NCBI GenBank assembly: GCA_007119095.1
Contig: SKQI01000010.1
Location: 1-46,937 of the forward strand
Direction of reading: 5' to 3'
Source of the DNA: Wenzhouxiangella sp.
GTDB lineage: Bacteria > Pseudomonadota > Gammaproteobacteria > Xanthomonadales > Wenzhouxiangellaceae
Length of the DNA: 46,937 bases
Positions 34,135 to 37,587 of the stretch are shown one piece after another; within the stretch, counting starts at the first letter, position 1; each line of letters begins with the position of its first letter. Made by a program: the position numbers and the translations under genes. The notes beneath the pieces were generated by a model. That model was given only the letters and a program-made list of their open reading frames with translations, had not been told where the DNA came from and ran no database searches.

Positions 34135-34149
34135 CTGGAGCGCCAGCAG

Positions 34150-34302
34150 CCTGCGCGGCAGAAGCCGTCCGGGCTGCAACGGCGCCCTCGCCATTGAGTG
34201 CGTCTATCGTCGAGCTTACATAGCATCACTATGCGCGCTTTCCGATAGACACACTCAATGGCGATTGCATCCCTTTCGCCTCGAACGTTTCTGCCGCGCA
34301 GG
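34150..34302. repeat. ~150-bp imperfect palindrome (MITE/REP-like element)
   Basis: Outer arms CCTGCGCGGCAGAA (34150-63) / TTCTGCCGCGCAGG (34289-302) perfect; inner 22-bp arms 34188-209 / 34243-264 with 1 mismatch; apical CATAG-catca-CTATG. Confidence 0.85.
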
Positions 34303-34305
34303 TTC

Positions 34306-35556
34306 CTAGAGAAAGTACTTGAGTGAACTTGCCGCTGCAAAGAAGGCAGCGCTCAGCAAGGCGAACCAGAGCAGCAGTGAAATCTCCTGCCATTTGTGCT
34401 GGGGCTGGCGAAAGAGCAGCCAGAGCACAAGCGGTGGGATGTAGTAGCGCTGTTCGATCAACTCTGCCGGCAGCATCGCGAGCACCGTCACTGGAAACAA
34501 CCAGATTGAGGCCTTCTCTTTCAATGGCGATACGGCAATGCTGAGCAGGCTCCAGGCCATCAGCGGAAAGGCAAGCAGGCGCGCCACCGGGTCATTGGCC
34601 AGCCAGCCCAAGACCCGGTTGCGAAGGTGGAATTCCGGCAGGCCCAGATTGTAGTGATGGGTAACGGCGAAGCTGAACCAGTAATAGAGACCCAGCAGGA
34701 GCAGGGCGGGGATGATCCACCAGCGCTTGCGAACGAGAGCCGCAATGTTGCCCAGATTGGCGATATGCAAGGGCAAGAGCACCAGCCAGAGCGCCAGCAG
34801 CATGAAAAAGACCTGGCTTGGATACAGCCCGCCGAGCTGATGCGACATCCGGTCTCCCACAGCCACGCCGCGGTTGAGAACCAGAAAAATGATGAACGCA
34901 AACAGCGGCAGCAAAAGTGGCCAGGTGCTCTTCAGCGCGGGCACCAACGCTTGACCCGCAGCTCGAATCTTGTCGCTCAGGTTGTCTCCGGCAGCCAGTG
35001 CCGTACCGATGCCGGCCTGGTGGACAGCCATCAGCCAGACCAGCCCCAGCCAGAAGACATTGGTTTGACGGATGAAAAGCGCAGCCAGTCCTATGCAGGC
35101 TGCCGCCTTGAAGCGCTGGCGATCGGCCAGCAGAACAACTGCCAGCAGCGCTGCCAGAGCCAGCAGGTCGGTGTACAGGAGGACATAGAACGGCCACAAC
35201 AGCGGACAGGCCAGCAGTTGCAGTGAACGCAGGAATGGCTGCTGGGCGGCATGAGCGCGCCAGTACAGCCAGGCAAGGAAAATGACGCTGCTGGCCAGCA
35301 GCGCGCTAATCGCACGCAATGCGGTGACCTGATCCAGTCCGAGCAGTGCAGCAGGCGCAGATACGATCAGGTGGTAACCGGGAGTGACCGTGATTTCCGG
35401 GACGCGCTTGAATTCACCGGCCAGAAAAAACTGGATCTGGCCGTGATGGAAGTGCTCGTCGACCATCAGCTGGTCGGGCAGCAGATACAGGCTGGAGGCC
35501 AGGATGCCCAGGGTGATCAGCGCCAGCAGGACGCTGCTGAGCCCGGTCTTGCTCAT
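34306..35556 (-). CDS. ALG10/DIE2-like (GT59, GT-C fold) membrane glucosyltransferase homolog
   Basis: Polytopic membrane protein with ordered motifs VDEHFH..Q, PEITVTPG, LLYTD, RQTNVFW, N.GVAVGDRMSH, EQRYYIP, matching eukaryotic ALG10 blocks as recalled. Confidence 0.8.
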   Translation of the reverse strand: MSKTGLSSVLLALITLGILASSLYLLPDQLMVDEHFHHGQIQFFLAGEFKRVPEITVTPGYHLIVSAPAALLGLDQVTALRAISALLASSVIFLAWLYWRAHAAQQPFLRSLQLLACPLLWPFYVLLYTDLLALAALLAVVLLADRQRFKAAACIGLAALFIRQTNVFWLGLVWLMAVHQAGIGTALAAGDNLSDKIRAAGQALVPALKSTWPLLLPLFAFIIFLVLNRGVAVGDRMSHQLGGLYPSQVFFMLLALWLVLLPLHIANLGNIAALVRKRWWIIPALLLLGLYYWFSFAVTHHYNLGLPEFHLRNRVLGWLANDPVARLLAFPLMAWSLLSIAVSPLKEKASIWLFPVTVLAMLPAELIEQRYYIPPLVLWLLFRQPQHKWQEISLLLWFALLSAAFFAAASSLKYFL

Positions 35557-35562
35557 CGAAGC

Positions 35563-36168
35563 TCAGATCGGCGTTGTGTCCGGGGTCGGCGCTTTGCGTC
35601 GCCGCAGCCAGCGAACCATCCAGACCAGCAGCGCGACCAGGGCGATAATGACAATGATCCCGAATACGATCGGGATCAGCAGCGCCATGGCAATGGCAAA
35701 CAGGCTGCCCGCAGTCTCACCCGTCGAAACCAACGGATTGGCGAGGCCGCCGCTGGATGCCGTGGACAGGCCGCGCGCCAGCACGCTGCCGGTCTGAACG
35801 ATGCCTGCAGAGCCGCCACCCAGCGTGAGCGCGGTCCCCCACTGGGCCAGGTCATTCATTTCCGGGAGCAGGGAAGCGACAATGACGGTGCCGCCGCCAA
35901 TGGCGGCCGGGGTCGCCAGAATGTCGAGCAGGTTGTCAACCAGCGGGATGTAGTAGGCACCGGCCTCAAGCATGGCGGCAATGCCAACGATGATCAGCAC
36001 CGGTTCCGAGGCCAGCCAGGCAAACTGTTCTCCGACCTCCAGCCAACCCATGCGCACGGCAATGCCCAGCGCCAGAATGGGTAGAAACACCCGCAGGCCG
36101 GCTGCTGCACTCAAGGTAATGCCGGCCATGATGGCCGACAGCATGGTCAGGTCTGACACGCTTTCCAT
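35563..36168 (-). CDS. DUF4126 family membrane protein
   Basis: LSAAAGLRVFLP, EAGAYYIPLVDNLLD, RGLSTASSGGLANPLVSTGE. Confidence 0.8.
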   Translation of the reverse strand: MESVSDLTMLSAIMAGITLSAAAGLRVFLPILALGIAVRMGWLEVGEQFAWLASEPVLIIVGIAAMLEAGAYYIPLVDNLLDILATPAAIGGGTVIVASLLPEMNDLAQWGTALTLGGGSAGIVQTGSVLARGLSTASSGGLANPLVSTGETAGSLFAIAMALLIPIVFGIIVIIALVALLVWMVRWLRRRKAPTPDTTPI

Positions 36169-36174
36169 GGCGCC

Positions 36175-36180
36175 ATTCTA
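36175..36180 (-). promoter_or_regulatory. -10 element (TAGAAT) 6 nt upstream of the DUF4126 ATG; probable leaderless transcript
   Basis: Minus strand reads TAGAAT-GGCGCC-ATG; no Shine-Dalgarno. Confidence 0.55.
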
Positions 36181-36200
36181 CGCCGCTTCGGCGGGCCGGG

Positions 36201-37106
36201 TCAGCCACTCCCCCGGGTGCGAGTCTTGTCCTTGCGCGCGTTCTTTTCCAGAAACTGAATGATCATGCCGGCGACGTCCTTGCCGGTAGCCGTTTCTATG
36301 CCCTCCAGGCCTGGTGATGAATTGACCTCCATGACCAGCGGCCCGTGGTTTGAGCGCAGCAGGTCTACCCCGGCCACGTTCAGCCCCATGATTCGGGCCG
36401 AACGCACCGCCACGGCGCGCTCCTGGGGGGTGATCTTGATCAGCTCGGCAGAGCCGCCGCGATGCAGATTGGACCGGAATTCACCGGGCTTGGCCTGGCG
36501 CTTGATTGCGGCAACCACCTTGTCGCCGATCACGAAGCAGCGGATGTCCGCACCGCCAGCTTCCTTGATGTACTCCTGGACCATGATCGAAACATTCAGC
36601 CCCATGAAAGCTTCGAGGACACTTTCGGCGGCCTTGCGTGTTTCACACAGTACGACGCCGATGCCCTGGGTGCCTTCCAGCAGCTTGGCCACCAGGGGGG
36701 CACCGCCGACCATTTCGATCAGGTCGCCGATGTCATCCGGGGCGCGGGCGAAACCGGTCACGGGCAGGCCGATGCCGCGTCTCGCCAGTAGCTGCAGTGA
36801 GCGCAGCTTGTCGCGCGAACGGGTCACGGCAACCGATTCATTGAGCGGGAAAGTGCCCATCATCTCGAATTGGCGCAGCACGGCCGTGCCGTAAAAAGTG
36901 ATCGAGGCGCCAATTCGCGGTATGACGGCGTCAAACGGATCCAGCTGTTCTCCGCGGTAATGCATGGTCGGACGATGCGAGGCAATGTTCATGTAGCAGC
37001 GCAAGGTATCCACCACCTGGACATCGTGCCCGCGCTCCTTTGCGGCTTCAATCAGGCGGTTGGTCGAATAGATCTTTCGGCTACGGGAAAGAATGGCAAT
37101 GCGCAT
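36201..37106 (-). CDS. rimK: ribosomal protein S6--L-glutamate ligase
   Basis: [62 protein letters not shown]; GAGG SD before ATG 37106. Confidence 0.96.
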
Positions 37107-37134
37107 GAGGATTCCTCGGGTGCTGGTTTGGCGC

Positions 37135-37587
37135 TTAGTTGAAGCGAGGTTTGCCTTGAAGAAAGGTTCTGGCTGGATAGACCAGGGCGTGGTTTTCCAT
37201 CGCGACGCGCCCCAGCAGCATGCGGTATCGCATCTTGCGTCGGTCACTCAAGGTGATGTCAACCGGCCAGCGAGAGTGGCCGATGACGATCGGCGTGCGG
37301 ATAGTCAGGCGTTCGCTTGCCTTGCCGGAACTGCTTCGCACGATGCGAGTGCCAACCAGGCGGCACTCGCAGTCGATATCGCTGACGGCTGCGATGTGGT
37401 CCAGGTGGACGCGGAACGCAACCCAGTTCAGACCATCACGCACAAATGGCCGAATGTTGCTGGCATGCAGGGCGCATGACTTGGCGCCGGTGTCGACGCG
37501 CGCGCGCAGGCGGTCAACGCCAAGCTCAGGCAGGGCAACCCACTCGCAGGCACCGATAATCATGTTCGGCCCGATATGCGAGCTCAT
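37135..37587 (-). CDS. RimK-associated retropepsin-like protease (RimB / 'ATP-dependent zinc protease' family)
   Basis: [42 protein letters not shown]; adjacent to rimK. Confidence 0.85.

Follow-up and report, generated by a model that had tools for sequence, protein, structure and literature searches.

Among the closest described systems are the GtrA/GtrB/Gtr* systems of Shigella and Salmonella, in which an undecaprenyl-phosphate-glucose (Und-P-Glc) synthase, a flippase and a GT-C glycosyltransferase work together (PMC11127046). Among these, GtrIc acts after GtrI, adding to the Glc-alpha1,2-Glc branch its second glucose (PMC4924310), and in Synechocystis GtrB makes UndP-glucose (PMC4728340). 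The linkage made by GtrIc is also the one made by ALG10 (DIE2) of eukaryotes, an alpha-1,2-glucosyltransferase which passes glucose from Dol-P-Glc to Glc2Man9GlcNAc2-PP-Dol and thereby places the final glucose on the N-glycan precursor. ALG10 acts after ALG8, characterised eukaryotic ALG10s use glucose (PMC10859629), and the family, GT59, is tabulated among the inverting enzymes, its donor being a lipid-P-monosaccharide (PMC10920833). The luminal ALG enzymes have been considered apparently unique to eukaryotes, with prokaryotic matches only very distant and PMT-like (Lombard 2016; PMC4973528), and a 2024 preprint places ALG10 at the origin of eukaryotes (10.1101/2024.10.30.621208). A first-pass annotation of the present DNA proposed an undescribed bacterial system built around an ALG10 homologue. 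Open-licence papers, supplements not included, yielded no paper on prokaryotic GT59. The family is already auto-annotated, since RefSeq names bacterial members ALG10 (for example WP_232426947.1 and WP_250461791.1); IMG labels other members alpha-1,2-glucosyltransferase.

The gene lies in a stretch of 46,937 nucleotides from Wenzhouxiangella sp., hereafter the window, which on a Pfam scan of its proteins is ordinary gammaproteobacterial chromosome. The reading frame is intact from ATG to stop.

34306..35556, minus strand: gene for a GT-C glycosyltransferase of the ALG10/DIE2 family, 416 aa with roughly 13 predicted membrane helices

The seven sequence blocks quoted in the first-pass annotation were all found in the 416-aa protein in the order given, at residues 32, 53, 118, 162, 224, 247 and 366. 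A search with the Pfam family DIE2_ALG10 (PF04922), suggested there as a check, gave a significant match (E 4.9e-42; 145 bits against a cut-off of 27; profile positions 4-390 of 391), and no other Pfam family was matched at E<=0.01. NCBIfam held no model for the protein. Its membership of the GT59/DIE2_ALG10 family is thus confirmed at the level of sequence. The closest named relatives in our genome scan, at 68-75% identity, came from Wenzhouxiangella-family genomes.

Protein searches aimed at the ALG10s of eukaryotes gave no protein with a eukaryotic name, and the comparison set was instead obtained with a DNA pattern scanned against metagenomes, which gave 95 loci, of which 13 long frames were used. 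These frames are metagenomic and carry no species names; they were called eukaryotic from their Pfam DIE2_ALG10 scores (292-408 bits in the 11 of 13 scanned) and, at five loci, from flanking genes such as CDC20-like WD40, SMI1_KNR4, MTC6, seipin and ERGIC. By BLASTP the window protein aligned with two of the eukaryotic ALG10s at 24% identity, over 392 aa (E 2e-20) and 408 aa (E 3e-23), and these alignments paired the quoted blocks with each other. Prokaryotic and eukaryotic profiles aligned over 378 columns (E 1.5e-37), so that the homology with ALG10 holds over the full length. It extends to the order of the motifs and to the approximately 13 helices, as modelled for ALG10 (PMC6801728), and a mixed alignment of 9 sequences has 23 invariant positions.

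Conserved residues fall in predicted outer loops of the window protein, as follows.

35437..35463, minus strand: first outer loop motif, residues 32-40 (D33, E34, H37, Q40)
35167..35205, minus strand: second outer loop, P118 to Y128-T129-D130
35050..35073, minus strand: third outer loop, R163-Q164-x-N166-x-x-W169
34840..34887, minus strand: fourth outer loop, N228-x5-G234-D235-x3-H239
34615..34659, minus strand: fifth outer loop (H300, N303, R312, N313)
34435..34461, minus strand: last outer loop, E368-x-R370-Y371

The motifs thus occur in the order DE..H..Q, YTD, RQ.N..W, N.G...GD...H and E.RY. In the first loop, for which we refer to the published ALG10 topology model (PMC6801728), D33 and E34 are kept in 77/77 prokaryotic rows of the family alignment, and in the eukaryotic rows D is found in 12/13 and E in 11/13, the N-terminus being missing from three of the rows; by analogy with other GT-C enzymes these two residues are likely to be the catalytic acids. 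YTD is kept in 13/13 eukaryotic rows and, having served as the scan pattern that picked the prokaryotic loci, is independent evidence only in eukaryotes. Conversely, RQTNIIW picked the eukaryotic set, and the third-loop motif is independent evidence only on the prokaryotic side, where R163 is present in 77/77 and Q164 in 76/77 rows. E368-x-R370-Y371 is kept in 72-74 of the 77 prokaryotic and in 13/13 eukaryotic rows. Overall D33, E34, R81, P118, R163, E368, R370 and Y371 are near-invariant in both groups. The largest difference between them lies in the fifth outer loop, where N303, present in 77/77 prokaryotic rows, is aligned to L, T or I in eukaryotes, which carry there their own D-N-R-H-Y motif (13/13 rows), absent from the window protein. 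This loop may therefore be a candidate region for acceptor specificity.

An AlphaFold2 model of the window protein, made from a 29-row alignment, had a mean pLDDT of 93.6. With VIA-align, the best 20 rows were all GT-C-type or GPI-transamidase entries, the first ranks being taken by ALG12 (Z 21.8, rmsd 3.9, 310 residues aligned), AglB (19.7), Pmt1 (18.8), Pmt4 and ArnT (18.2), at Z 18-22 and 9-15% identity. Foldseek returned no rows at E<=0.001 for the same model, its top rows still being GT-C enzymes of the same families. Thirteen membrane spans could be read from the model helices, as in the published topology model of ALG10 (PMC6801728), and the side bearing the motifs was the poorer in K/R, with 9 in its 136 residues where the other side has 15 in 82. 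The GT-C fold with periplasm-facing conserved motifs, which had been put forward from the sequence, is therefore also what the model predicts. A sequence search of the PDB found no solved ALG10 or relative, and the fold was compared with other GT-C families; ArnT (GT83), PMT (GT39), ALG9/12 (GT22) and PimE (GT87) share the fold (Z 12-22) and the use of lipid-P-sugar donors, but stand at only 9-15% identity, have no Pfam match to the window protein and differ from it in that it carries no large C-terminal periplasmic domain.

In contrast to its homology, the function of the window protein is unlikely to be that of an ALG10 ortholog, judging from sequence comparison. It has no C-terminal extension of the eukaryotic type, it stands on a separate branch from ALG10, and its carrier lipid would be undecaprenol. 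No STT3 match was found in the window's genome (G000, 84% complete), and the natural ALG10 acceptor is therefore not expected there.

We then consider whether the gene could be a recent transfer from a eukaryote, a contaminant or a non-functional relic. Its distribution is very patchy, which would suit such an origin: a draw across the class, in which only 4 candidates were scored for each genome, gave the family in 0/399 others, a draw from the Peribacteria class gave it in 6/250, and the window protein was second of 223 matches to the eukaryotic profile, among the best prokaryotic scorers. However, its neighbours are bacterial housekeeping genes (sdh, a pilU-type ATPase, rimK, lpxK and dnaK), its GC3 of 0.755 is normal for the genome (mean 0.72 +/- 0.06), and it is syntenic in relatives, lying downstream of rimK in 9/10 carriers of the genus, so that eukaryotic contamination can be excluded. 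Frames are intact and polar residues invariant in 77 rows, which counts against a relic. In a quick-search tree of 90 rows with SH-aLRT supports (69 locus proteins, 8 further proteins and the 13 eukaryotes; 7 near-duplicate loci and frames covering <300 profile positions left out, and no plants or Asgard knowingly sampled), the eukaryotes formed one side of a long branch with no prokaryote inside (SH-aLRT 100; 99 in the tree with an outgroup). The window protein grouped with Wenzhouxiangella, Polynucleobacter and a Flavobacteriales bin (SH-aLRT 99), and since the prokaryotic branch to which it belongs is separate from each of the 13 eukaryotic sequences sampled, the gene is not a recent eukaryotic transfer. 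For the sampled eukaryotes this explanation is thus largely refuted, and we consider it very improbable.

The prokaryotic members instead appear to form a large, patchy branch beside eukaryotic ALG10. Our genome scan gave 67 loci from Gamma- and Betaproteobacteria, Patescibacteria, DPANN archaea, Myxococcota, Omnitrophota and others, and a profile search gave 1,066 clusters (50% identity) at E<=1e-30, which are unassigned in taxonomy and may include eukaryotic members; three ESM Atlas clusters of 70-421 members each were 96-100% bacterial. In the Dokdonella family (Rhodanobacteraceae) 19/151 genomes drawn carried the gene. No full-length match was present in 250 other genomes of the Woesearchaeota-containing phylum, where the five scanned of 6 weak N-terminal matches were of PMT_2 or GT22 type. 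Carriage by phage or plasmids was rejected, the phage, plasmid and IMG/VR collections holding no match to the family. The prokaryotic part of the tree intermixes distant taxa, the pattern that horizontal movement of the gene would be expected to leave. When 8 distant GT-C rows were added as a root (229 columns), prokaryotes and eukaryotes came out as sisters in the best tree, but with a support of 67 and long branches, which establishes neither a sister nor a nested position. The prediction that the gene would bear on the origin of ALG10 thus stands in so far as the prokaryotic branch is separate from the eukaryotes, every prokaryotic row lying outside the 13-sequence group.

Taking these features together with the donor genes described below, our preferred reading, to which we give a probability of roughly two in three, is that the ALG10-family membrane protein acts at the end of a dispersed pathway of the Gtr type. 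Undecaprenyl phosphate would first be charged with a sugar, in all likelihood glucose, by the unlinked GtrB-type synthase; a flippase would move the undecaprenyl-P-sugar to the periplasm; and the ALG10-like enzyme would there transfer the sugar onto a lipid-linked surface glycan, by inverting chemistry with D33 and E34 as putative catalytic acids, to give an alpha linkage. The donor lipid would be undecaprenyl phosphate and the donor sugar is probably glucose. The weakest step is the acceptor, which may be an Und-PP-linked or lipid A-linked glycan, such as an O-antigen, core or exopolysaccharide unit.

As had been remarked of the window, no GtrB-like synthase or GtrA-like flippase accompanies the gene there: neither a GtrA nor a GT2 was seen in the 36 window proteins scanned, a subset of the ORFs, and a KdsB-type cytidylyltransferase was the only nucleotide-sugar-related match among them. 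A GtrB-type gene, the only one in the window's genome, was found on another contig (G000:C283:1865-2920). Its product scored 349 bits against Sll0501, which we take to be the Synechocystis GtrB, and 164 bits against ArnC. Its best NCBIfam match was PgfS, below cut-off, and for this reason glucose is no more than the probable sugar of this GT2.

Of the 59 genomes compared in the genus, 10 have the ALG10-like gene and 10 an ortholog of the C283 GtrB; 9 have both and 48 have neither. The single carriers are G062, with the ALG10-like gene only, in which the partner GT-C runs off the contig end at the place expected for GtrB, and G017 (81% complete), with the GtrB ortholog only, in which the usual syntenic site of the ALG10-like gene is truly empty. 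The line for orthologs, at least 71% identity, was chosen after seeing a gap down to 55%; a looser line of E<=1e-50 admits 15 genomes, of which 6 lack the ALG10-like gene. When the 31 high-quality genomes of the genus are taken by themselves, each of the two genes is found in the same 8. A tree built from the sdhA of 54/59 genomes (5 had no usable sdhA) requires 4 changes for each gene, and these include the isolated genome G068, which has both genes at other loci. A sign test on independent pairs was not significant (3 pairs, p 0.25-0.5). The GtrB-type gene thus tracks the ALG10-like gene across the 59 congeners, with independent events too few for significance. In Rhodanobacteraceae a GtrB-type gene was present in 19/19 carriers and 108/132 non-carriers (one-sided p 0.03, ignoring kinship), a replicate which is nearly uninformative as GtrB is close to core in that family.

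Two other genes served as controls in the 59 genomes, and neither tracks the ALG10-like gene. The DUF4126 gene directly upstream, considered as a partner or flippase, is present in 28/59, being missing from 2 carriers and found in 20 non-carriers, and was set aside as an incidental neighbour. A locus on contig C30, which in the window's genome also bears a Dpm1-size GT2, was set aside as not specific, its GT-C-like gene, by which the locus was judged, being present in 37/59 genomes. A GtrA was found neither in the window's genome nor in the single-contig genome G068, and is present in 4 other genus carriers of the ALG10-like gene. The ALG10-like gene and GtrB were unlinked in all genus carriers examined. 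A search of the genome for GtrAB- or Dpm1-like genes, as had been advised, therefore yielded the synthase on C283 and the Dpm1-size GT2 on C30 but no GtrA. Of the earlier alternative of a distributed or a non-canonical pathway, the first half is upheld, the synthase being on another contig and co-occurring in the genus, while the system otherwise looks like a dispersed, canonical GtrB/GT-C system, save that no GtrA was found in this genome or in G068.

In relatives the arrangement can be closer to that of the Gtr systems. At 7/67 loci, in taxa other than the host genus, gtrA and gtrB lie within 3.3 kb of the ALG10-like gene, in the manner of Gtr cassettes, in contrast to the unlinked, chromosomal genes of the host genus. 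A shorter, polyprenol-P-sugar-synthase-like GT2 lies within 5 kb at 6 more of the 67 loci, and one protein (P0049) is a GT2-ALG10 fusion; the remaining 54/67 loci have no clear synthase nearby, just 43 loci having 3 kb on both sides. A second gene, with a match to PMT, PMT_2, GT87, DUF2298 or DUF6311, the last two presumably also GT-C-like, was found within 8 kb at 19/67 loci (17 above cut-off; selected neighbours scanned) and accompanies 6/7 of the gtrAB cassettes. Because a second GT-C is so frequent near the family, a sequential transfer with the ALG10-like enzyme as the capping step is suggested, and it is possible, if tentative, that the enzyme caps a glucose placed by the second GT-C to give Glc-alpha1,2-Glc, as ALG10 does.

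The C283 GtrB itself is divergent from a gene for a protein of 618 aa that has a predicted GT-C fold and, at its C-terminus, a periplasmic domain (best Foldseek rows STT3, PglB and ArnT; E about 5e-5, TM about 0.35). Orthologs of this partner occur in 5/59 genomes, all carriers of the ALG10-like gene, so that it tracks that gene less well than GtrB does. In these 5 the synthase has its own adjacent GT-C client, which counts against the link between GtrB and the ALG10-like enzyme. The partner, being of GT-C fold with this domain and these best rows, would also suit elongation of protein O-glycans, in which the hexose that the partner first attaches to Ser/Thr, in exported proteins or in pilin, would be extended with a second one by the window enzyme; PMT and PMT_4TMC genes adjoin the family at loci L019, L025 and L047. 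However, the partner's ortholog is present in just 5/10 carriers, the window's genome has no STT3 match, and PMT matches were absent from it, from G061 (single contig) and from G024, with weak partial ones in G068 and G066. We consider this explanation improbable. The window's genome has LPS genes and two Wzy_C-domain genes, so that an O-antigen acceptor could exist, but neither STT3 nor PMT was matched in it. This favours an acceptor of the polysaccharide or LPS kind, as in the preferred Gtr-type pathway, over a protein glycan.

Tandem copies of the gene were observed at two loci, namely in an Omnitrophota bin (L054:2260-13469), with five full-length ALG10-like paralogs and one cut by the locus end, and in a gammaproteobacterial bin (L018:4890-12688), with four near-identical ones. 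In two Myxococcaceae (L045:9881-17917 and L048:9881-17917) the ALG10-like gene and a GT2 are divergent, and the former stands directly upstream of an NRPS that has AMP-binding, condensation and luciferase-like domains, possibly a pathway to a glycosylated lipopeptide. The same lipid-linked logic could thus serve another sugar (mannose, HexNAc or a pentose) or a small acceptor such as a glycolipid or lipopeptide, with a specificity that varies across the family. Such variation would be consistent with the two kinds of GT2 that neighbour the family, the paralogs (the tree has five from L054 and four from L018), the myxococcal copies, a fifth outer loop unlike that of ALG10, and the Dpm1-size GT2 on C30. 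In contrast, the synthase that is co-distributed in the genus is GtrB-like, eukaryotic members use glucose (PMC10859629), and the widely distributed GT-C-like gene next to the C30 GT2 shows no tracking of the ALG10-like gene. We consider this explanation improbable as well.

What is new from this window is that a donor synthase is present in the genome, unlinked to and co-distributed with the ALG10-like gene, and this GtrB points to the donor worth testing first. A full-length, alignable prokaryotic branch contradicts the eukaryote-only view for ALG10, the origin of which becomes testable by ordinary phylogenetics. Since no ALG10 structure was found in the PDB, the compact members in the cultured, non-pathogenic Teredinibacter turnerae, Microbulbifer litoralis and Uliginosibacterium flavum offer practical models for the GT59 mechanism. 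A broader proposition, which we regard as rather unlikely to hold in full, is that prokaryotic GT59 enzymes are GtrB-fed Glc-alpha1,2-Glc capping transferases and that eukaryotic ALG10 descends from a prokaryotic surface-glycan enzyme. Were such an origin true, eukaryotes would not have invented this luminal step of N-glycan assembly but would have recruited it from prokaryotes, its chemistry unchanged, and yeast alg10 might be rescued in part by a bacterial member.

Several further arrangements were observed. In G061 a single gene (L263:1-2589) fuses GT2, GtrA and PMT_2, a three-component system in one chain, and GtrA-bearing frames of similar length are present in G029, G024 and G066. P0104 (1223 aa) is a fusion of YfhO and DIE2_ALG10, with two membrane glycosyltransferase-type modules in one chain. 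In most carriers the GtrB-type gene lies tail-to-tail with radical SAM/DUF3641 and fatty acid hydroxylase-family genes (G000:C283:45-2920), which we take to resemble arsenosugar genes; its neighbours in G068 and G017 differ from this arrangement. In Rhodanobacteraceae (L031, L033, L037, L043, L056, L066 and related loci) the ALG10-like gene stands alone between the rplQ end of the ribosomal cluster and dsbB.

Within the window, positions 35563-37587 hold rimK, its upstream protease-like gene and the DUF4126 gene, the last being found on either side of the ALG10-like gene depending on the relative. A promoter scan returned one site against 0.8 expected, which is no evidence of a promoter. One metatranscriptome run contained 15% of the sampled words and an identical contig of 221 bases that lies within the gene, which is not counted as expression as carry-over of DNA is possible. 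A 163-bp imperfect palindrome (34145-34307; RNA fold -95 kcal/mol, z -9.5) occupies the gap that separates the ALG10-like gene from the convergent pilU-type gene, with partial copies on contigs C230, C257 and C37 and a full-length copy of 85% identity in G023 (L223:4354-4522), and it looks like an element of the REP or MITE type.
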